A program made the position numbers and the translations under genes. The notes beneath the pieces are model-generated. The model did not search any database. It was not told where the DNA came from and saw only the letters and a list, made by a program, of their open reading frames with translations. Shown here piece by piece: positions 11,128 to 54,762 of a stretch of DNA of 64,000 nucleotides. The stretch comes from an uncultured Bacilli bacterium (GTDB taxonomy: Bacteria > Bacillota_I > Bacilli_A > RF39 > UBA660). The DNA lies in the NCBI GenBank assembly GCA_934167665.1, contig CAKPLN010000003.1:65137-129136 (forward strand). The letters are read 5' to 3'. Positions within the stretch are counted from its first letter, which is position 1. The number at the start of each line of letters is the position of its first letter.

Positions 11128-11204
11128 GGGCGATTAGCTCAGTTGGTTAGAGCACCTGCCTTACAAGCAGGGGGTCACAGGTTCGAGTCCTGTATCGCCC
11201 ACCA
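11128..11204 (+). tRNA. tRNA-Val (anticodon TAC)
   Basis: Cloverleaf folded by hand: loop CTTACAA, T-arm GGTTCGAGTCC, CCA encoded. Confidence 0.85.
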
Positions 11205-11208
11205 TTAT

Positions 11209-11284
<76 letters not shown>

Positions 11285-11292
11285 TTTTTTTG

Positions 11293-11376
11293 GAGAGGTA
11301 GCGAAGAGGCTAAACGCGACAGACTGTAAATCTGTTCTCATTGAGTTCGATGGTTCGAATCCATCTCTCTCCACCA
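11293..11376 (+). tRNA. tRNA-Tyr (GTA)
   Basis: Loop CTGTAAA, long variable arm, CCA encoded. Confidence 0.8.
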
Positions 11377-11385
11377 CTTTAGTAT

Positions 11386-11460
11386 TGCCTCGTAGCCAAG
11401 TGGTAAGGCATCAGACTTTGACTCTGACATGCGTTAGTTCGAATCTAACCGAGGCAGCCA
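11386..11460 (+). tRNA. tRNA-Gln (TTG)
   Basis: U1-A71 pair, loop CTTTGAC, CCA encoded. Confidence 0.8.
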
Positions 11461-11474
11461 TTTTTTAAATATTT

Positions 11475-11550
11475 GATCTGTTAGCTCAGTCGGTAGAGCA
11501 TTTGACTTTTAATCAAAGGGTCATGAGTTCGAATCTCATACAGGTCACCA
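11475..11550 (+). tRNA. tRNA-Lys (TTT)
   Basis: Loop CTTTTAA, CCA encoded. Confidence 0.85.
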
Positions 11551-11551
11551 T

Positions 11552-11640
11552 GCCTGAGTGGCGGAATAGGTAGACGCACAGGACTTAAAATCCTGCGAGA
11601 TTCAACCCTCGTGCCGGTTCAAGTCCGGCCTTAGGCACCA
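11552..11640 (+). tRNA. tRNA-Leu (TAA)
   Basis: Loop CTTAAAA, long variable arm, CCA encoded. Confidence 0.8.
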
Positions 11641-11653
11641 ATTAAAATATTAA

Positions 11654-11680
11654 AGCTCAAATTTAAGGTTTGAGCTTTTA
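11654..11680 (+). terminator. rho-independent terminator of tRNA unit 1
   Basis: AGCTCAAA/TTTGAGCT 8-bp stem followed by a T-run. Confidence 0.6.
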
Positions 11681-11753
11681 TATTAAAGTTTTATGGTTTT
11701 ACACATATAATTAAATAGACACCTTAAGTTTTACAATTAATTTAATAAAAATG

Positions 11754-11783
11754 TTGACATCCGTAAAATTACTATGTTATAAT
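11754..11783 (+). promoter_or_regulatory. consensus sigmaA promoter for tRNA unit 2
   Basis: TTGACA (11754-11759), TGn-TATAAT (11778-11783), 18-bp spacer. Confidence 0.6.
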
Positions 11784-11813
11784 CAATTTGTCGTCTGAAA
11801 AGAATGACGTTAT

Positions 11814-11906
11814 GGAGGAATACCCAAGTCTGGTTGAAGGGACCGGTCTTGAAAACCGGGAGGTCGTGCAAGCGGCGCAGGGGTTCGAATCCCTTTTCCT
11901 CCGCCA
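11814..11906 (+). tRNA. tRNA-Ser (TGA)
   Basis: Loop CTTGAAA, long variable arm, CCA encoded. Confidence 0.8.
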
Positions 11907-11913
11907 TTTAAAT

Positions 11914-11990
<77 letters not shown>

Positions 11991-11996
11991 ATATTT

Positions 11997-12073
11997 GGTC
12001 TCATGGTGCAGCTGGTTAACACGTCTGCCTGTCACGCAGAAGATCGCGGGTTCGAGCCCCGTTGAGACCGCCA
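11997..12073 (+). tRNA. tRNA-Asp (GTC)
   Basis: Loop CTGTCAC, CCA encoded. Confidence 0.85.
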
Positions 12074-12078
12074 TATTT

Positions 12079-12154
12079 GGCTTCATAGCTCAGTCGGTAG
12101 AGCAAGGGACTGAAAATCCCTGTGTCGCTGGTTCGATTCCCGCTGGAGCCACCA
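12079..12154 (+). tRNA. tRNA-Phe (GAA)
   Basis: Loop CTGAAAA, CCA encoded. Confidence 0.85.
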
Positions 12155-12208
12155 TTTTTATAAATAATGTTAAGACAACTAATGTGCTGTAGCTAAACAA
12201 CATGTCTT

Positions 12209-12285
12209 GCGCTCGTAGCTCAGTTGGATAGAGTGTTTGGCTACGAACCAAAAGGTCAGGGGTTCGAATCCCTTCGGGCGCACCA
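12209..12285 (+). tRNA. tRNA-Arg (ACG)
   Basis: Loop CTACGAA, CCA encoded. Confidence 0.85.
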
Positions 12286-12290
12286 GTTAT

Positions 12291-12367
12291 CGGGAAGTGG
12301 CTCAACTTGGTAGAGCACTTGGTTTGGGACCAAGGGGTTGCAGGTTCAAATCCTGTCTTCCCGACCA
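12291..12367 (+). tRNA. tRNA-Pro (TGG); its 3' end is the prophage attachment core
   Basis: Loop TTTGGGA. The 3' 18 nt are repeated at 49008-49025. Confidence 0.85.
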
Positions 12368-12400
12368 TAAGTAATTTAACGTTGAGAAATCAACGTTTTT
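12351..12400 (+). repeat. attL: tRNA-Pro 3' end plus phage-supplied terminator hairpin; direct repeat of 49008..49057
   Basis: 18/18 identical core TCCTGTCTTCCCGACCAT, then about 84% identity over 50 bp including the AACGTTGA-n4-TCAACGTT hairpin and T-run. Confidence 0.75.
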
Positions 12401-12453: not shown

Positions 12454-13701
12454 TTATAAATTATCTGCAAAAACTAGATTGTCTAAAATATCGACAATCT
12501 CATCTTGTACAGTTGGAAATAAGTGTAAATATGTTTCTATCATGACTTGGATGGTATGACCTAATCTATCCGAAGCCATTGTGAAGAATTTTACAGTATC
12601 AATTTTTATATTTAATTTGTGACATTGCTTGATATATTCATTAATCAATAATGAAACGTGACTATGTCTAAATTCGTGCATGGTTATTCTATGTACACCA
12701 CTTAGTTTGAAGTAGTAGTCTTTATGCCTATTTATAGTAGTTTTAGGTAGGAATCTGGTATTGCCAAATACAAACCATGACTCTTTAAAATCGGTATATT
12801 TTTTTACTTCATTTTTATATATGAGTAAGGATTCAACTAAGAACTTACTCATTTTAATTTTTCTGTTTTGGTTATTTTTTGTGGAAGTTATATCAACTTT
12901 ACCAGCTGTCTCTTCATAAAGTGTTTTATTAATTGATATTTCATTTGTATTAAAGTTAATATCTTCCCATGTAATTGCTTGAATTTCACCACGTCTGCAA
13001 CCAGTGTAATATGCAAATATAAAAAATGTTCTATCTCGCAAGTCATTAATTACAGATAAGAATTTATTAAATTCATCAAAAGTAATATATCTGATTTTAT
13101 CTTCGTCTCTAACGATAGCATCTTGTTTTTGCTGGAAACATCCAAAAGCTCTTGCTGGATTATTATTTAAGTCATATTGTCTTATAGCATAATCAAAAAT
13201 TTTACAAAGAATATTATATATTTTGTTTTTATATGCTATTGAAAGGTGCTTTTTATCCATTTCCTCAGCCCATAAACGAATTACTTGAATATTTATATCA
13301 TCCACGAAATAATCTTGAAAATAGGACATAATATGATTCTTAGAATCCTTTATATATGAATTCACTGTAGAAGATTTTCTAATAGTAGATAAATATTCAA
13401 AATAGGATTTAGTAAGTGTAATAAATTTAATTCTGGCTGGATGTTCTCTTTTGCTTAAAAATACTAATTCAGCCTCTTCCGCCTCCTTTTTTGTAAAATA
13501 CATTTTTGACACTTTTTGTTTTCTTTCTCCATAAATATTTTTATAATAACAGACAAAATACCAATGTCGCCCATCCTTGGTCCATTTTGTCTTATTTTTT
13601 TCATTATATACTGCCATAAAAACATCACTCCAATCTTTACATATTTCTATAAATTTGTTAAAATTAGAGTACAGAAAAAGAGAAAAGTCTTGGTAGGACA
13701 T
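12454..13701 (-). CDS. int: tyrosine recombinase/phage integrase
   Basis: 415 aa with C-terminal catalytic residues (R...HEFRHS...Y) and a SAM-like N-terminal domain. Sits adjacent to attL. Confidence 0.85.
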   Translation of the reverse strand: MSYQDFSLFLYSNFNKFIEICKDWSDVFMAVYNEKNKTKWTKDGRHWYFVCYYKNIYGERKQKVSKMYFTKKEAEEAELVFLSKREHPARIKFITLTKSYFEYLSTIRKSSTVNSYIKDSKNHIMSYFQDYFVDDINIQVIRLWAEEMDKKHLSIAYKNKIYNILCKIFDYAIRQYDLNNNPARAFGCFQQKQDAIVRDEDKIRYITFDEFNKFLSVINDLRDRTFFIFAYYTGCRRGEIQAITWEDINFNTNEISINKTLYEETAGKVDITSTKNNQNRKIKMSKFLVESLLIYKNEVKKYTDFKESWFVFGNTRFLPKTTINRHKDYYFKLSGVHRITMHEFRHSHVSLLINEYIKQCHKLNIKIDTVKFFTMASDRLGHTIQVMIETYLHLFPTVQDEIVDILDNLVFADNL

Positions 13702-15775: not shown

Positions 15776-16480
15776 ATGAATGGAAAATGGATAAAAATAT
15801 TTACAAAATTTTTAAATTGGGAATGGTATAAGGACCAAAATACAAAGGCACTTTTTATTCATTGTTTATTAAAAGCAAATTGGAAGGATGGAAAATTTGA
15901 GGGGCATGACATACCCAGAGGGAGCTTTGTGACAGGAAGAAAAAAGTTGGCTCAAGAATTAGGTTTATCAGAACAAGAGATAAGAACAGCACTAAAACAC
16001 TTAATTTCAACCAAGGAATTAACCATCAAAAAAACCAATAAATTCTCAATAATATCAATAGTAAAATTCGAAATATATCAGCAAGTTAACCAACAAATTA
16101 ACCAACAACTAACCAACAATCAACCAACAACTAACCAACAACTAACCACAATAGAAGAATATATAGAATATAAGACTAATAATAGTGTGTGTAATAATAT
16201 GCGCACGTGCGATGAAAATTTTGAATGTCATTTGGGCAGTCTCTATAAAACAATCAACTGTAAAAATTGTATGAAAAAATGGAAATGCCCTTTACCAGAA
16301 GAGCCTACGTTTGAAAGTTTGTATGGCAAGAGCTTTTACAAGTATGTCGCCGAAATTGAACTTAGAAAATTGGAAGTTGCTAAAGAATTGAACATGCGAA
16401 AAGAAAACAATGTTTTGAATTTGGAAGTTTTGGATTTATTTGATGATGAAGAAGGCTTAACAAATGAGAAATGCCGATAA
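15776..16480 (+). CDS. phage replisome organizer / replication initiator N-terminal domain protein
   Basis: MNGKWIKIFTKFLNWEW...LAQELGLSEQEIRTALKHLI matches the phage replisome-organiser N-terminal pattern. An internal Q/N/T-rich repeat is encoded by iteron-like DNA repeats. Confidence 0.5.
   Translation: MNGKWIKIFTKFLNWEWYKDQNTKALFIHCLLKANWKDGKFEGHDIPRGSFVTGRKKLAQELGLSEQEIRTALKHLISTKELTIKKTNKFSIISIVKFEIYQQVNQQINQQLTNNQPTTNQQLTTIEEYIEYKTNNSVCNNMRTCDENFECHLGSLYKTINCKNCMKKWKCPLPEEPTFESLYGKSFYKYVAEIELRKLEVAKELNMRKENNVLNLEVLDLFDDEEGLTNEKCR
16081..16152 (+). repeat. iteron-like 9-12-bp tandem repeats (AACCAACAAnTA)n inside the replication gene; putative phage origin
   Basis: AACCAACAAATTAACCAACAACTAACCAACAATCAACCAACAACTAACCAACAACTAACCACA. 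Confidence 0.5.
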
Positions 16481-26566: not shown

Positions 26567-26683
26567 TTGATATGAGAGAAAAGAATCATTTGGGGTTATG
26601 CATGAAATATAGTGAATCGTGTAAATTTTGTCCACGTTCAAAAAATGTGAAGAAGAGTTGAATATTGAAGAAAATGAACTTAA

Positions 26684-26757
26684 GCGGGTTAGTGTAAAGA
26701 GAAAAATGTCAGTCTCAGTAGCTGAAGATGAAGGTTCGACTCCTTCACCCGCAACCA
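26684..26757 (+). tRNA. tRNA-like element with degenerate D-arm (candidate phage tRNA, anticodon loop CTCAGTA, CAG?)
   Basis: GCGGGTT acceptor 5' strand, perfect T-arm GAAGG-TTCGACT-CCTTC, ACCCGCA-A-CCA 3' end, 74 nt. D-arm lacks canonical GG and stem. Confidence 0.3.
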
Positions 26758-43304: not shown

Positions 43305-44726
43305 ATGGCAAGTTTTTATTCTGAAACCGATTCTAAAGGCTACACATTAAGGTTAGATGTTAGCCAATCAAGCCAAGACGTAAATAAAAATGAAACAGTT
43401 GTTAATTGGGCTCTCTATATTGCTTGTAAAGGTAATTGTTTTGTAACAAACAATAACTATATAACAGTAAACATAAATGGTGTTGCTGTAAGGAATAATG
43501 TTGCTAAGTCATTAAGCACAGATTTTAATAGCACAGTTTACATTGATGGTGGCTCACTTACTATTCCACATAATGCTGATGGTTCAAAGACATTATCTGT
43601 TAGTGCTTCATTAACACCATCATCATCAGCAAGTTATATGCCAACTTATAAATGGTTGAGTGGTTCTATGACGTTGACAACTATTCCAAGAGCTTCAACA
43701 GTTACTGCCACAGACAGTTATGTTGAATCAGCAACCAGTATAAATATTGCACGTGCTTCATCTTCGTTCACTCACAATCTATCATATTCATTTGAAGAAT
43801 TAACTGGTAGTATTGCTACTGATGTTGCAACATCGTATGGTTGGACTATTCCAACCTCTTTTTATGAAAAATTGACAGATAAATTAAGTGCTATATGTAC
43901 TATTACTTGCGATACTTATAGCGGTACTACATTAATTGGCAGTACAACAACAACATTTAAAATTTCTGTTGATGTCGAAACAAATGCACCTTCAATCAGT
44001 GCGACTATAGTTGATACCAATTCAAGTTCAATAGCACTGACTGGCTCAAATTCTAAACTAGTAAAATATGTTTCAAATGCAAATGTTGAAATAACTTCAA
44101 CTGCAAAAAATGGAGCAACTATTGTTAGTAAGAAAGTGGTGTGTGGTGATGGTAAGTTTCTCAATGGTGATGGCACTTTAGAAAAAGTTGAGAGTGGCGA
44201 ATTTATAGTTAGTGCTACTGATAGTCGTGGAATTACAAGTTCAATAAAATATACATTAGATATAGTTAATTATGTTAAGTTGACTATTAATGCAGACTTT
44301 TATAGACCAGCACCGACAACTGGAGAGGTAGCAGTTATTTTTGTTGGTAATTATTTTGACGATAGTTTTGGTGAAGTAAGTAATACACTAAATGTCAAAT
44401 ACAGATACAGAAAAAAGGATGATTCGGCTATCTGGAGCGATTATACATCGTTAGCGGTAGTAAAATCATCAAACACGTATTCAAATGGAAATAATCCTAT
44501 CTCGTTAGGAACTAACTTTGATTATAAAGAAATATATGAATTTGAAATTATTGCAACAGACAAAATTGGCGAAGTGAAAAAAGAAAAGCCATACGTTGTT
44601 GCGGCAGGAGAAACTGTTTACGACTGGGGAAAAGATGATTTTAAACATAACACTGTCGTATATCTTAAAAGCGGCAATGAAATTCTTGATTATGATGTTG
44701 TTGCTGAATGGGAAGAGGAGGCATAA
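43305..44726 (+). CDS. tail fibre / receptor-binding protein (Ser/Thr-rich, beta-rich)
   Basis: 473 aa, S/T-rich repeats. Confidence 0.5.
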   Translation: MASFYSETDSKGYTLRLDVSQSSQDVNKNETVVNWALYIACKGNCFVTNNNYITVNINGVAVRNNVAKSLSTDFNSTVYIDGGSLTIPHNADGSKTLSVSASLTPSSSASYMPTYKWLSGSMTLTTIPRASTVTATDSYVESATSINIARASSSFTHNLSYSFEELTGSIATDVATSYGWTIPTSFYEKLTDKLSAICTITCDTYSGTTLIGSTTTTFKISVDVETNAPSISATIVDTNSSSIALTGSNSKLVKYVSNANVEITSTAKNGATIVSKKVVCGDGKFLNGDGTLEKVESGEFIVSATDSRGITSSIKYTLDIVNYVKLTINADFYRPAPTTGEVAVIFVGNYFDDSFGEVSNTLNVKYRYRKKDDSAIWSDYTSLAVVKSSNTYSNGNNPISLGTNFDYKEIYEFEIIATDKIGEVKKEKPYVVAAGETVYDWGKDDFKHNTVVYLKSGNEILDYDVVAEWEEEA

Positions 44727-44772
44727 TATGAAAAGAAATATATTGACAAGTATTTTTAATACTTGTACCCTT

Positions 44773-44836
44773 ATACATACATACATACATACATACATAC
44801 ATACATACATACATACATACATACATACATACATAC
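44773..44836. repeat. perfect tetranucleotide microsatellite (ATAC)16
   Basis: 16 uninterrupted ATAC units, 64 bp, in the 225-bp intergenic region between the fibre gene and the collar genes. Confidence 0.95.
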
Positions 44837-44950
44837 GTATGCTATGTTATACAAGAAAGGAGGTATGCTTATTATTTAAGCTACTTCCTTTTATTATCTT
44901 CTGCAAAGGAGGTAATGATTTAGAGTTATCAGTTATTAAGGTGAATCTTT

Positions 44951-45382
44951 ATGGGTAAGGCAGTAAAGATGAAGGATAAGAATGGTAATAGTATTTATCC
45001 TTGCCCTTATTATCCAATAGGTAGCCTGTATTTATCAGTTATTAATGTAAATCCAGCCAATTTCTTTGGCGGAACATGGGAACAGATTAAAGATCTGTTC
45101 TTATTAGCATGTGGTGATATATATTCAGCTGGCTCGACTGGCGGAGAAGCGACACATAAATTGACTGTAAATGAAATGCCATCTCATAAGCATGGAATTG
45201 CTGGATTTCCGGATGGCACTTCACAAGGATGGGCAGATCCAAACGTAAGAATTGTATATCATACTACAAATGATAATCCTTATCCGCATATTGATGCTTT
45301 AATTAATTCGGCTGGTGGTGATCAAGCACACAATAATATGCCACCATACTTAGCCATATATGTTTGGAAAAGAATAAAATAA
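44951..45382 (+). CDS. phage tail-collar domain protein (paralog 1)
   Basis: Collar-domain pattern YPIGSLYLSV...GG.W followed by GEATHKLTVNEMPSHKHG. AAGGTGA RBS. Confidence 0.6.
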   Translation: MGKAVKMKDKNGNSIYPCPYYPIGSLYLSVINVNPANFFGGTWEQIKDLFLLACGDIYSAGSTGGEATHKLTVNEMPSHKHGIAGFPDGTSQGWADPNVRIVYHTTNDNPYPHIDALINSAGGDQAHNNMPPYLAIYVWKRIK

Positions 45383-45402
45383 TAACTCTAAATTAAGAAA
45401 AT

Positions 45403-45834
45403 ATGAGCAAAAGTATTCAGTTAATAAATAATAATAATGAAAAAATATTTCCAAATCCACACTTTCCAGTAGGAAGCATTTACTTATCTGTATTAAATAC
45501 AAATCCGAAGGTTTGGTTTGGTGGAAAGTGGGAATTAATTGCAAAAGGAAGAACTCTAGTAGGTGTTGACACAGATGATGTAGACTTCAATGAAGCAAAA
45601 AAAATCGGTGGAGAGAAAAAACATAAACTAACAAAAGAAGAATTACCACCGATAGATATTAATACATCTTTTGCTACACCATCAACAAGTGGTGGTTATG
45701 GTAATGGTTTGCAATATGGAGATAGTAGTGGTAATTCACAAAATATCTTGGTAAAAAATGTAAATGCTGGAAACAAGGAACACAATAATTTACAACCATA
45801 TTTCACTTGTTTTATTTGGTGTCGCACTGCTTAA
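45403..45834 (+). CDS. phage tail-collar domain protein (paralog 2)
   Basis: FPVGSIYLSV...GGKW...KHKLTKEELPP. Confidence 0.6.
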   Translation: MSKSIQLINNNNEKIFPNPHFPVGSIYLSVLNTNPKVWFGGKWELIAKGRTLVGVDTDDVDFNEAKKIGGEKKHKLTKEELPPIDINTSFATPSTSGGYGNGLQYGDSSGNSQNILVKNVNAGNKEHNNLQPYFTCFIWCRTA

Positions 45835-45852
45835 GTAATAAGCCATAGAAGT

Positions 45853-46377
45853 ATGGCAAAATCATTCAAATTTAAAAACAATAATTATGTTGATAGTACA
45901 GGAATAGTTCATAATAAAACATTACTCAGTACACTACTAGATAAGTTGCTTAATGTTGTTCCAACAAAATATTTGTTAGCAACAATAAGTGATAGCTCAC
46001 ATGTAAGTAATGTAGATTGGACAAAAATGTTACTTATAAAATCAGAAGGTAATGTAAAAAATACTGAACTAACTATTGAAAACAATGTTATAAAAGTGGG
46101 AAAAAATATAAATCGTTTAAAGATTAGTGCATCTGTATTTTGTGAGGGTATAGATAATGGTGCATACATTTGGGGTGCAATTTGTGTAAACGATTCAAGA
46201 ACTTGCATGACTATTACTAGTGGAACATATTACCAATCAGCAATATTCCCTCCAAAAATCATAAATGTTCAAGAAAATGATTTAATTTCACTTCAGTTAA
46301 ATACATCGAGTTCAAATAATGTTAGTGAACGTCTTGGAGTAACAAACACATGGTTATTAGTTGAAATAATAGAATAA
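45853..46377 (+). CDS. hypothetical tail-associated protein
   Basis: ORF. Confidence 0.3.
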   Translation: MAKSFKFKNNNYVDSTGIVHNKTLLSTLLDKLLNVVPTKYLLATISDSSHVSNVDWTKMLLIKSEGNVKNTELTIENNVIKVGKNINRLKISASVFCEGIDNGAYIWGAICVNDSRTCMTITSGTYYQSAIFPPKIINVQENDLISLQLNTSSSNNVSERLGVTNTWLLVEIIE

Positions 46378-46390
46378 GAAAGGACAGAAA

Positions 46391-46723
46391 ATGAAAGATT
46401 TTTTAAAAAAAGTATTGCTTAAAGTTCCGATTTTGATTCGGGATTTTTTATTGAAAGATATTAAAGATGAAATTAAAACTGATATTAAAGATTTAAAAAA
46501 AGAAATAAAAGATATTAAGATGGATAATAAAGCTATCCATAGCGAACTTTTAAAGAACAGTCTGGACACGATGAAAATTGCTATTTGTAGTGAAGAGCTG
46601 CCATTAAGCGAAAGAGTTTCTATTGGAAAAGATTACATTGATAAAGGTGGCAATGGGGCAATAAAAATAAAGGTTCATGTACTTGAAGATGAGTATGAGA
46701 AGGAGTTGAAGAATAATGCTTAA
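46391..46723 (+). CDS. hypothetical lysis-module protein (K/D-rich repeats)
   Basis: ORF with IKDxIK repeats. Confidence 0.3.
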   Translation: MKDFLKKVLLKVPILIRDFLLKDIKDEIKTDIKDLKKEIKDIKMDNKAIHSELLKNSLDTMKIAICSEELPLSERVSIGKDYIDKGGNGAIKIKVHVLEDEYEKELKNNA

Positions 46724-48924: not shown

Positions 48925-48994
48925 AATGATAGGAAATGATAGACAATGACTAGCAATGAAAAACAATGTATAGCAACGAATGACAATGAAATAC
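48925..48994. repeat. seven phased 10-bp direct repeats (AATGAnnnnn) beside attR; candidate integrase arm-type / IHF sites
   Basis: AATG at 48925, 935, 945, 955, 965 and 985, with AACG at 48975: an exact 10-bp period. Confidence 0.7.
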
Positions 48995-49007: not shown

Positions 49008-49057
49008 TTTCCTGTCTTCCCGACCATTATGAATTTAACGTTGATTATTCAACGTTT
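49008..49057 (+). repeat. attR: copy of tRNA-Pro 3' end plus host terminator hairpin
   Basis: TCCTGTCTTCCCGACCAT identical to 12351-12368. AACGTTGA-ttatt-TCAACGTT hairpin with a T7 run. Confidence 0.75.
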
Positions 49058-51939: not shown

Positions 51940-52190
51940 ATAATATTATTTAAGATATAATAGCAACTAGATGTGATGAGTCTGAGGAGTAAATATTTAT
52001 TCATACATAGAGAGTTAATGGTTGGTGTAAATTAACTATGATTAATATTGAAGGTAGCAGATGAACATGATTTCCGAAACTAAGTAGGTTATCCCGGATT
52101 ATTCCGTTATAAAGAAGAGGATATCATAAGATATCAAATTAAGGTGGTACCACGAAAATCTCGTCCTTTAAGGATTGAGATTTTTTTTAA
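51940..52190 (+). ncRNA. T-box riboswitch leader (tRNA-Val-responsive, for valS)
   Basis: T-box sequence AAATTAAGGTGGTACCACG (52137-52155) followed by a terminator hairpin AAAATCTCGTCC...GGATTGAGATTTT and a T-run. Confidence 0.6.
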
Positions 52191-52209: not shown

Positions 52210-54762
52210 ATGTTAGATAAAAAATATAATCATAAAGAAGTAGAAAAAGATAAATATAATTCTTGGAAAGAAAAAGGCTATTTTAACGCAACACCAGATA
52301 GTAATAAGAAACCATTTTGTATAGTTCTTCCACCTCCTAATGTTACTGGTGTCTTACATTTAGGCCATGCTTGGGATGTAACTCTTCAAGATATCATCGT
52401 TAGATATAAGAGAATGCAAGGGTATGACACTTTATGGCTTCCTGGAATGGACCATGCCGCAATTGCAACTGAAGCTAAAGTAGTTAAAAGACTAAAAGAT
52501 CAAGGTAGTGAAAAATATGCGATAGGAAGAGAAAAATTTATTGAAGAATGCTGGAAATGGACTCATGAACATTCTGACATAATTAGAACTCAATGGGCTA
52601 AATTAGGTATATCTCTTGATTATACAAAAGAAAGATTTACTCTTGATGAAGTTATAGAAAAAGCTGTCAAAAAAGTGTTTGTTGACTACTATAACAAAGG
52701 TTTAATCTATCGTGGTGAAAAGATTATTAACTGGGACCCAGCTGCCAAAACAGCCCTATCAAATGAAGAAGTAATTTATAAAGAAGAAAAAAGTGCTTTT
52801 TATCATCTAAAATATCAACTAGAAGGAACAGACAAATTTATAGATGTCGCAACAACTAGACCAGAAACCTTATTTGGTGATACTGCTGTTGCGGTTAATG
52901 AACAAGATGAACGATATAAAGACTTTGTTGGTAAAAATGTTATTCTACCACTAGTAAATAAAAAAATACCTGTAATAACAGATGAACATGCTGATATGAC
53001 TAAAGGTACTGGTGCCGTTAAGATTACTCCAGCTCATGACCCTAATGACTTCGAAGTAGGTAATAGACACAACTTAGAAAGAATTCAAATTATGAATGAT
53101 GATGCTACTATGAATGAAAACTGTCCTACCAAGTATCAAGGTCTAACAAGAGAAGAGTGCCGAGAAGAGGTATTAAAAGATTTAAAAGAACAAGGCTTAT
53201 TACTAAAGATAGAACCACTTGTTCATGAAGTTGGCCACTCTGAAAGAACTGGTGTTATGGTTGAACCAATGCTAAAAAAACAATGGTTTGTTAAAATGCG
53301 TCCATTAGCTGATAAAGTATTAGAAAATCAAAAGAATAAAGATACTAAAGTTCATTTTGTTCCATCTCGCTATGAGAAAACAATGAATCATTGGATGGAA
53401 ATTACTTATGACTGGTGTATTTCAAGACAACTATGGTGGGGACATAGAATCCCAGCTTGGTATAAAGATGATGAAGTATACGTTGGTATTAGTGCCCCAA
53501 CTGGTGAAGGTTGGCATCAAGATGAAGATGTATTAGACACTTGGTTTTCAAGCGCTTTATGGCCATTCGCAACTCTAGGTTGGCCAGATAAAACGCCTCT
53601 TTTAGAAAGATACTATCCTAACAATGTTTTAGTAACTGGTTATGATATTATTCCATTCTGGGTAAATAGAATGACTTTCCAAGGAGAAGAATTATTAGGT
53701 AAGAGACCTTTCCAAGATTGCTTAATTCATGGTCTTATAAGAGACAAAGAAGGTCGTAAGATGTCTAAGTCGCTTGGTAACGGTGTTGATCCAATGGATG
53801 TTATTGAAGAATATGGTTGTGATGCCCTAAGATATTTCCTAACTACAAATTCAGCTCCTGGTATGGATTTACGTTATGATGAAGAAAAAGTAAAATCATC
53901 TTGGAACTTTATTAATAAACTTTGGAATGCTTCACGTTTCGTATTAATGAACATCGAAAATATTAAAACTAAAGAATTTAATCACCAAGATCTAAGTCTA
54001 GCTGATAAATGGATTCTAACTAAAAAGAATAATCTAATTAAAAGCGTTACTAAGAGTATGAATAAATATGATTTCCACAATGTTGGAAATGAACTATACA
54101 CTTTTATATGGAATGATTTCTGTGATTGGTACATTGAATTAACTAAGGCCAATATGACTGATACTACTAAAGCAGTTTTATTAACAACATTAACTGATAT
54201 CTTAAAATTATTACATCCATTTATGCCTTACGTAACAGAAGAAATATACAGTATGTTACCAATTAAGGATCAGGCGTCTATTATGATTTCCTCTTATCCA
54301 GAATATGATAAAACATTAGTATTTAAAACAGAAAGTGAACAATTAGAAAGTATATTAACAGATATAGTTTCAATTCGTAATTTAAAAGCTTCAAATAAAG
54401 TAACTAAAGATTCTTTAGTAAATATAAAATGCTCAAATGAACTATTCAATAATATCTTTATTTCTCAATTAAAAATAGCTCCAGAAAGCATTTGTATAGA
54501 GCCAAAAGAGGATATGGCAAGTTGTAATTATAAATCAGCTAATATCAATATTACCTATTATTTTGAACACGAAAAAATAGACACTAAAGCTCTTGAAGAA
54601 GAATTTGAAAAATTAACTCAGTCAATTAAAAGACGTGAAGGCTTATTAGCTAATGAAAATTATGTTAATAAAGCTCCTGCTAATATAGTTGAACTTGATC
54701 GTAAAAAACTAAAAGAAGAACAAGAAAAACTAGCATACTTAAAAGAACAACTTGGAAAATAA
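52210..54762 (+). CDS. valS: valyl-tRNA synthetase
   Basis: HIGH-type (HLGHAW) and KMSKS motifs. 850 aa. C-terminal coiled coil. Confidence 0.9.
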   Translation: MLDKKYNHKEVEKDKYNSWKEKGYFNATPDSNKKPFCIVLPPPNVTGVLHLGHAWDVTLQDIIVRYKRMQGYDTLWLPGMDHAAIATEAKVVKRLKDQGSEKYAIGREKFIEECWKWTHEHSDIIRTQWAKLGISLDYTKERFTLDEVIEKAVKKVFVDYYNKGLIYRGEKIINWDPAAKTALSNEEVIYKEEKSAFYHLKYQLEGTDKFIDVATTRPETLFGDTAVAVNEQDERYKDFVGKNVILPLVNKKIPVITDEHADMTKGTGAVKITPAHDPNDFEVGNRHNLERIQIMNDDATMNENCPTKYQGLTREECREEVLKDLKEQGLLLKIEPLVHEVGHSERTGVMVEPMLKKQWFVKMRPLADKVLENQKNKDTKVHFVPSRYEKTMNHWMEITYDWCISRQLWWGHRIPAWYKDDEVYVGISAPTGEGWHQDEDVLDTWFSSALWPFATLGWPDKTPLLERYYPNNVLVTGYDIIPFWVNRMTFQGEELLGKRPFQDCLIHGLIRDKEGRKMSKSLGNGVDPMDVIEEYGCDALRYFLTTNSAPGMDLRYDEEKVKSSWNFINKLWNASRFVLMNIENIKTKEFNHQDLSLADKWILTKKNNLIKSVTKSMNKYDFHNVGNELYTFIWNDFCDWYIELTKANMTDTTKAVLLTTLTDILKLLHPFMPYVTEEIYSMLPIKDQASIMISSYPEYDKTLVFKTESEQLESILTDIVSIRNLKASNKVTKDSLVNIKCSNELFNNIFISQLKIAPESICIEPKEDMASCNYKSANINITYYFEHEKIDTKALEEEFEKLTQSIKRREGLLANENYVNKAPANIVELDRKKLKEEQEKLAYLKEQLGK

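Follow-up and report, generated by a model that had tools for sequence, protein, structure and literature searches.

A variable ATAC repeat in a conserved leader cassette: a candidate switch for tail-tip genes in phages of gut Bacilli

Overview

The window analysed here, a 64,000-nucleotide stretch of DNA from an uncultured Bacilli bacterium, contains a prophage in which a perfect array of ATAC units precedes two tail-tip genes. Because the array is kept at the same place across very diverged phages, we regard it as a selected contingency locus, and it is very probably a hypermutable switch for the tail-tip genes. As to how the switch might operate, we lean towards leader-frame coupling, in which the repeat number n modulo 3 would set the translational coupling of the tail-tip genes; this reading is drawn from the arrangement of start codons, stop codons and predicted hairpins around the array. 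The cassette behaves as a classical tetranucleotide contingency locus, but its repeat is neither in the regulated gene nor between promoter elements.

The array and its genomic setting

The features that define the setting of the array are as follows.

12454-13701, (-) strand: tyrosine integrase gene
43305-44726, (+) strand: upstream tail gene, 473 aa, DUF859/phrog_372 (Pfam PF05895, E = 4.9e-49; phrog_372, E = 1.7e-81)
44773-44836, (+) strand: (ATAC)16 array (Tandem Repeats Finder: period 4, 16.0 copies, 100% matches, score 128)
44951-45382 and 45403-45834, (+) strand: two tandem Gp10_C tail-tip genes, 143 aa each (PF21939, E = 3.6e-19 and 9.7e-28)
45853-46723, (+) strand: pair of small genes (174 aa and 110 aa) separating the tip genes from the holin gene (from the ORF list)

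The perfect 64-bp microsatellite reported by a sequence-only reading of the window is borne out by Tandem Repeats Finder. It occupies a 224-nt gap that has the DUF859/phrog_372 tail gene on one side and the two Gp10_C genes on the other, and no second array of this kind was found in the 64-kb window. The array contains neither a stop nor a start codon in any frame of the (+) strand, and (AUAC)n RNA is incapable of self-pairing. In genomes of 185,579 species, the string CTT(ATAC)5 turned up in no more than 25 stretches, of which 13 represent the leader cassette described below. Because the string is so rare and so many of its occurrences are the same cassette, a chance origin of the array is excluded.

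The prophage is 36.7 kb long and is integrated in tRNA-Pro. Its ends are an 18-nt direct repeat, TCCTGTCTTCCCGACCAT, with copies at 12351-12368 and 49010-49027, the first of which coincides with the 3' end of tRNA-Pro(TGG); this gene closes an array of 12 tRNA genes (11128-12367). After each copy there is a terminator-like hairpin, AATTTAACGTTGA...TCAACGTTTTT, similar in both places. Just inside the right prophage end, beside attR, lies a degenerate 10-nt tandem repeat (AATGATAGAC-like, ~6.5 copies, 48925-48990) whose units could be arm-type binding sites for the integrase or an excisionase. An 11-nt tandem repeat in the early region (TAACCAACAAC, ~5.5 copies, 16087-16152), in or beside a 234-aa ORF (15776-16480), could be an iteron-like or operator array. 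A tRNA-Leu(CAG) gene (26683-26757) resides within the prophage between early or replication-type genes and packaging genes.

Host genes in the window include a D-Ala-D-Ala carboxypeptidase and a valyl-tRNA synthetase with a T-box leader, and they point to a walled, low-GC Firmicute as the host. The T-box leader itself (140 bits, 51967-52171) is upstream of an 850-aa class I tRNA synthetase gene (52210-54762) whose product has the C-terminal arm of valyl-tRNA synthetases.

The upstream tail protein covers only about the N-terminal two-thirds of the phrog_372 profile (positions 1-452 of 743), and the products of the two Gp10_C genes align to the C-terminal ends, or tips, of several tail and tail-fibre PHROG families. 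These two genes are presumed to be the ones regulated. They are followed by the 174-aa and 110-aa genes and then by the holin and lysin genes. One of the two small genes has no family match, and the other matches only a PHROG of unknown function; the gene order around them is kept in other prophage copies, and they may be part of the same translationally linked unit as the tip genes. A megablast search of 43305-46377 against GenBank phages returned no match.

Repeat number in the prophage lineage

Exact-protein look-ups place this prophage in several gut metagenomes, including Hadza samples. The sequence-only reading had proposed comparing the prophage among related genomes, and the comparison confirms that the array changes length in whole 4-nt units: one contig from another sample (L007) shows no mismatch to the window along 9.4 kb and differs by one 8-nt gap alone, corresponding to 14 versus 16 units. 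The alleles found in the window's prophage lineage and its close variants have n = 6, 9, 13, 14, 16 and at least 18. The array is the fastest-changing site of this phage. Most short-read contigs of the prophage end inside the array, which is compatible with length heterogeneity and also with assembler k-mer limits. In one close variant of the window's cassette (L316, 1-44), the array reads (AGAC) at least 7 times and then (ATAC)4; a mutated unit has evidently spread within that array.

A leader cassette shared by diverged phages

We scanned viral contigs for (ATAC)6, one genome per species for CTT(ATAC)5, and metagenomes for GCTT(ATAC)5. The architecture came up repeatedly, for a total of 58 complete instances of the cassette, which form 28 clusters at ~80% leader identity. 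The array occupies the same slot of the leader in at least 28 diverged phage lineages (n = 5-24, median 12.5), and n varies within every multi-member cluster, with ranges such as 5-15, 6-14, 10-20 and 8-24. IMG/VR relatives of the collar protein that are 40-44% identical to the window's protein carry (ATAC)11-17 at the same place. Host names, where given, belong to genome bins: uncultured gut "Bacilli" of human and rabbit origin, one Mycoplasmatota, and one "Clostridium sp." of 1.5 Mb. A search of JGI metagenomes with the window-specific flank found nothing. That the repeat would be a contingency locus for host-range genes, as the sequence-only reading held, is supported by the hypervariable n, by the tail-tip genes directly downstream and by the retention of the site across diverged phages.

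The cassette begins with an SD sequence, 6-7 nt, an ATG and an A-rich stretch, followed in order by TTGACA, a hairpin of 5-8 bp, a TAnnnT-type hexamer and (ATAC)n. After the array there is often a GGC-UUAC-GCC mini-hairpin, and then a larger hairpin, HP1, whose 5' arm is fully SD-like (GAAAGGAGG). Its inner stem varies, its apex reads UAUUUAR, and its 3' arm consists of CCUCC plus a U-rich stretch. The 3' end comprises a second hairpin, HP2, with an SD-like arm and an anti-SD arm, then a weaker GGTG-type RBS and the start of a small gene.

This conservation bears on the simplest alternative, that the array is a neutral microsatellite or an assembly artefact without function. The repeat phases are evenly spread, as such an explanation would have it, and so many short-read contigs break in the array that some repeat counts could be unreliable. 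Against it, independent assemblies span the array with identical flanks, and even lineages with strongly diverged flanks retain the ATAC unit, mostly without interruption, at this position. Moreover, the array is embedded in conserved, structured sequence, and a neutral tract would decay. That the cassette-bearing phages are one recent clone is contradicted by how far the proteins encoded beside the cassette have diverged. We consider this explanation highly improbable.

Several variants and unrelated repeats were encountered in the scans. A minority of cassettes (L073, L089, L127 on the (-) strand, L164 and L177) carry the inverted repeat, (GTAT)n, in the same slot; these have a GGGACGC-TTAC-GCGTC hairpin and a T-run directly after the array, and an ATG in every frame of the array. 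In cassettes of the L027 and L087 types, TATGCTTATAC before the array nearly repeats the downstream gene start TATGCTTAAT (for example, L027, 2403-2409 and 2560-2568). To judge from these sequences, the 5' end of a tip gene may be where the array originated, and the leader may be what is left of a duplication. Kilobase-long, degenerate, satellite-like arrays of ATAC, ATGC and GTAC in L193, L201 and L212 (a Metamycoplasmataceae bin) are unrelated to the phage cassette. Unrelated IMG/VR contigs (L030, 1901-4305; L036, 2151-2414; L050, 16-24) contain several G8-G10 tracts around collar-like genes, which resemble the hypermutable polyG of receptor-binding genes in Campylobacter phages.

The leader ORF and its three stops

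Within the window, the elements of the cassette lie at the following positions.

44717-44730, (+) strand: leader ORF start, GGAGG at 44717-21, 6 nt, ATG at 44728-30 (read from the sequence)
44728-44958, (+) strand: leader ORF (uORF), 76 codons at n = 16, with the repeat read as (IHTY)n, ending at TAA 44956-58
44743-44771, (+) strand: promoter-like motif, TTGACA at 44743-48, 17 nt, TACCCT at 44766-71 (cluster comparison)
44746-44766, (+) strand: hairpin HP0, 9 bp with a UUU loop, in the leader ORF between the promoter-like hexamers (predicted fold)
44856-44891, (+) strand: hairpin HP1, 5' arm GAAAGGAGGTA (full SD-like), 3' arm TACTTCC then a U-rich tail (centroid structure)
44893-44916, (+) strand: hairpin HP2, formed by an anti-SD arm and the second AAGGAGGT, with a GCAA tetraloop between them (predicted fold)
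44938-44958, (+) strand: tip-gene start, RBS AAGGTGA at 44938-44, ATG at 44951, far uORF stop TAA at 44956-58

The leader ATG begins 1 nt past the stop codon of the upstream tail gene. A canonical SD and ATG for a leader ORF that is open through to the repeat are found in ~20 of 26 clusters, as judged by eye from the cluster sequences; a minority of cassettes (L077, L202 and L254) have no clear SD for this ORF. Because the 4-nt unit has no stop in any frame, n modulo 3 sets the frame in which the leader ORF leaves the array. The three exit frames stop at TAA 44877, in the apex of HP1 (near stop), at TAG 44921, after HP2 (mid stop), and at TAA 44956, which is 5 nt inside the tip gene (far stop). 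With n = 16 the leader ORF runs to the far stop, whereas with n = 14 it ends at the first.

In 25 of the 26 clusters, the farthest of the first stops falls between positions -2 and +8 relative to the start codon of the downstream gene, giving overlaps of the types ATGA, ATGnTAG, ATGnnTAA, ATGnnnnnTAA or TAATG. With its own start site and a stop that overlaps or abuts the downstream start, the leader ORF has the structure of a translationally coupled ORF. The other leader stops all avoid the frame that ends on the gene start (25/25 clusters). Dinucleotide shuffling gives p = 0.013-0.31 per cluster for the position of the far stop (summed log10 p = -27), and a stricter null for the stop ladder, in which every stop triplet is kept and only its frame is randomised, gives p = 0.06-0.30 each for the avoided frame (summed log10 p = -19.7); the clusters are homologous, and these combined p-values therefore overstate their independence. 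Insertions or deletions between leader elements would be expected to break such a ladder unless it is selected. In some clusters the mid stop is only 3-14 nt upstream of the start codon.

The product of the leader ORF appears to be of no consequence. The peptide has no Pfam match and its sequence shows no conservation across clusters, in which the SD-like motif is variously translated as KEV, ERR or KGG. Because the peptide is unconserved and the motif is read in different frames, it is the act of translation, or the open frame, that is kept, and the candidate that the leader peptide is a real small protein was rejected on the same observations. A fusion of the tail gene with the tip gene by frameshifting is likewise excluded, for the tail gene's stop codon precedes the array and all three frames stop before or just inside the tip gene.

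Among the complete alleles of the window's lineage, the coupled (far) frame is found in four of five (p ~0.05), and two of these four have lost 5 nt from the leader, a loss offset by n = 0 modulo 3. Across all sampled genomes, far, mid and near states are about equally frequent (20/20/16). Equal frequencies are predicted by fast switching and are equally expected if the frame is irrelevant, and so give the coupling model no positive support.

The sequence-only reading had also pointed to two mini-ORFs behind strong SD sequences. They exist (44865-79 and 44915-23) but are not conserved as ORFs: no more than 1-2 nt separate GGAGGT from their ATGs, and in the relative L026 the first ATG is replaced by ACA. 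It is their stop codons, and not the mini-ORFs as such, that matter.

Hairpins and the promoter-like motif

Other elements noted in the sequence-only reading were recovered with minor corrections. The TTGACA box is present, although one base earlier than claimed (44743-44748, not 44744-49), as is the hairpin with an SD-like arm, AAGGAGGTA...TACTTCCTT, which occupies 44857-44890 where 44858-44890 had been given. The 8-bp palindrome was found as described (CAAGTATT/AATACTTG at 44747-54 and 44758-65), and so were the second AAGGAGGT (44906-13) and the AAGGTGA RBS of the first collar-domain gene.

The leader is more stably folded than expected, with z-scores of -3.25 and -3.62 in the window. Leader z-scores across 26 clusters range from -0.6 to -7.0 (median -4.6) and are -2.9 or lower in 25 of the 26. 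The inner hairpin stems change in sequence between clusters while pairing stays. In the HP0 slot, other clusters have a 5-8 bp hairpin with different stem sequences and mostly GNNA loops (GTAA, GTGA, GCGA). The design of HP1 recurs with different inner stems; its stem is followed by UUUUAUUAU in the window and by U4-U7 in many clusters, the L173 type excepted. A consensus terminator scan did not call HP1 in the window, probably owing to its extended, bulged stem. HP2 reads CUUCU-GCAA-AGGAG in the window versus CUCCU-GUAA-AGGAG in close relatives, a change of a U-G pair to C-G that retains the GNRA loop; the mid stop (TAG 44921-23) is just 3' of this hairpin. The tip-gene start region is mostly base-paired in the predicted ensembles of partition-function folds.

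Structural conservation across clusters rests on these per-sequence folds and z-scores; MAFFT followed by RNAalifold on 24 HP1 sequences gave no consensus structure, the alignment not being structure-aware. An Rfam scan of the whole window found nothing in the array and leader region. The leader had no match at gathering score, and at a permissive E-value there were only microRNA-like low-complexity matches far below gathering scores.

TTGACA and its variants TTGACT and TTGCAA are at a fixed distance from the array in all clusters and occur in two different codon registers, which implies a constraint at the DNA level. The second hexamer matches TAnnnT in most clusters and is 16-17 nt from the first. 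The motif TTGACA-17-TAnnnT looks like a sigma-A promoter, whose transcripts would start in the array and lack the leader ATG. The array starts 1 nt after the TACCCT hexamer and is downstream of both hexamers in all clusters. It therefore lies beyond the -10-like hexamer (44766-71) and not between the promoter elements, as it would in a promoter-spacer switch. The motif could serve basal expression, could yield a short RNA terminated at HP1, or could have nothing to do with the switch.

Changes in promoter-to-hairpin spacing or helical phasing, the mechanism favoured by the sequence-only reading, are not the best fit, since they leave the SD and ATG and the three-frame stop ladder unexplained. 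A related possibility is that the motif is a real promoter and that the number of AUAC units in the 5' UTR grades expression as a rheostat, through folding, RNase processing or SD-dependent stabilisation, with the frame being irrelevant. The DNA-level retention of the -35-like hexamer, with TAnnnT kept at 16-17 nt, is in keeping with this, as are the long stems, which are plausible RNase III substrates.

Transcribed upstream repeats also offer precedent: in the (ATCTTTC)n 5' UTR of Haemophilus influenzae hmw1A, with RNase III (PMC12721329), and in the (AGAT)n of Moraxella catarrhalis uspA2 (PMC7302503), expression is adjusted by the number of repeats, post-transcriptionally or at the level of the mRNA. 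In those genes, as presumably here, the repeat is upstream of the regulated gene and is transcribed in a structured leader. However, both of these grade expression by length; the hmw repeats are themselves one side of a long hairpin whose other side is G-rich, and expression declines steadily as n rises, whereas the ATAC array does not self-pair, its hairpins are downstream, and the conserved features point to a modulo-3 effect.

A further parallel is STAB-SD, a 5' stabiliser of Firmicutes mRNAs such as cry3A, in which an SD-like sequence without a usable start stands in an untranslated leader (PMC4113751). In HP1, too, the 5' arm (GAAAGGAGG) is SD-like and has no usable start codon, and this favours the rheostat. 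STAB-SD, though, is a single-stranded 30S site near the 5' end, whereas here the SD-like arm is locked with an anti-SD arm inside a translated leader frame.

The rheostat leaves unexplained why an SD and ATG precede the promoter-like motif and why a stop-free frame reaches the gene start in 25/25 clusters. The inability of (AUAC)n to pair with itself counts against it as well, predicted pairing between the repeat and the start region is unconserved (0 to 0.65), and the occurrence of the array in both orientations argues against a sequence-specific role of the RNA. We consider graded control of this kind unlikely. Two narrower candidates fared no better: the window's folds predict that the repeat pairs with the UAUG start context, a pairing that is not kept across clusters, and a role of (AUAC)n as an RNA-protein binding array becomes less likely given that the slot can also contain the inverted (GTAT)n.

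Genes flanking the cassette in other phages

The upstream gene is phrog_372 in 4 of 5 other clusters tested, cut to the N-terminal two-thirds of the profile. The downstream genes encode diverse small proteins of 106-160 aa, several of which match the C-terminal ends of tail-fibre or receptor-binding families. The cassette thus sits exactly at the border of conserved and variable modules, with a constant leader design between a gene that is usually phrog_372 and many unrelated small families of tip proteins. This arrangement is suggestive of a recombination joint, in which the leader and microsatellite would supply shared homology for swapping tail-tip modules and changes in repeat number would be a by-product. 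Such exchange needs no stop ladder, no leader start site and no hairpins whose pairing is preserved, however, and leaders differ by more than 20% between clusters, leaving little homology beyond the array. Recombination as the main role of the cassette is, in our judgement, improbable.

A possible mechanism

Under leader-frame coupling, (ATAC)n would be the hypermutable core of a cassette that sets tail-tip output in a heritable but reversible manner. A late polycistronic mRNA would carry the leader, and ribosomes would translate the leader ORF. In the long frame, which in the window's leader corresponds to n = 1 modulo 3 (for example, 16), they would melt HP1, HP2 and the partly occluded start region, terminate atop the start codon of the tip gene and re-initiate there, giving an ON state. 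In the other two frames they would stop early, the hairpins would re-form, and the weak GGTGA RBS would be poorly accessible, so that expression would be OFF or low; partial re-initiation from the mid stop might occur in those clusters in which it closely precedes the start. The states would interconvert when the array slips as lysogen or phage DNA is replicated. A population of lysogens could then release a mix of virions with tip protein and virions without it or with less of it, a form of bet-hedging on host range.

Three features are not accounted for by the frame model, namely the ATG-less transcripts of the promoter-like motif, the presence of HP0 between the hexamers, and the conservation of the UAUUUAR apex beyond its stop. 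Further layers of control, acting on mRNA stability or transcription, may come from the SD-like hairpin arms and the promoter-like motif. More tentatively, the design of the cassette raises the possibility of a portable three-state device in many temperate phages of gut Bacilli, in which the array would pick the termination site and thereby the off, low or high expression of interchangeable tip proteins, hedging host range.

Relation to known systems

Tetranucleotide contingency loci are well known in Haemophilus influenzae, for example lic1 with CAAT and mod with AGTC or AGCC. Similar loci are listed for Moraxella, such as modM with CAAC (PMC7302503). The ATAC cassette shares with these loci a perfect 4-nt array (~6-25 units) without stops, in which 4-nt slippage shifts the frame of the traversing ORF reversibly and heritably. 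In Haemophilus and Moraxella, which are Gram-negative pathogens, the repeat is in the 5' end of the regulated gene, whereas here, in a temperate phage of low-GC Bacilli, it is in a separate, unconserved leader ORF, and control would be indirect, via the end of that ORF.

Hypermutable tracts in phages have been described as polyG in receptor-binding genes of Fletchervirus, which infects Campylobacter, and as A/T homopolymer runs in T2 and T4 (bioRxiv 10.1101/2025.10.21.683753, citing Sorensen et al. 2021). As in those phages, a phage-encoded repeat here would generate subpopulations that differ in receptor-binding or other functions, which amounts to bet-hedging; unlike the ATAC leader cassette, the earlier tracts are homopolymers inside coding genes of virulent phages. 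The same preprint reports that homopolymers of at least 6 bp are under-represented in tail-fibre genes, from a scan that covered homopolymers only, and its text on such tracts describes neither a tetranucleotide array nor a leader cassette (bioRxiv 10.1101/2025.10.21.683753). Our full-text literature searches for the ATAC repeat string, and for tetranucleotide repeats together with phage tail fibres, found no description of such a locus.

Bacterial control through leader ORFs and translational coupling includes termination and re-initiation at overlapping stop and start codons, as well as leader peptides of the ermC and cat type. As in coupled operons, the short uORF of the cassette ends at an overlap of the ATGA or ATGnnTAA type, and there is an occluded start that a translating ribosome would open. 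The known coupled and leader systems take a drug, an amino acid or operon stoichiometry as their input, whereas in the cassette a mutable repeat would be the input and would determine which of the three termination sites is used.

Implications

If the proposed function is correct, phages would gain their first described tetranucleotide contingency locus, and its mechanism would be distinct, with a repeat that controls genes outside itself through translational coupling. The array also explains why short-read assemblies break at exactly this spot. The succession of SD and ATG, TTGACA, hairpin, (ATAC)n and SD-like hairpins provides a signature for host-range genes in metagenomes, and the arrangement may be of use in engineering, as a uORF whose reading frame selects one of three hairpin-borne stops. 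The routes usually invoked for host-range change in phages are point mutation, recombination, DNA inversion and diversity-generating retroelements. A repeat switch before tail-tip genes would add a fast and reversible route to altered host range in temperate phages of poorly known gut bacteria.
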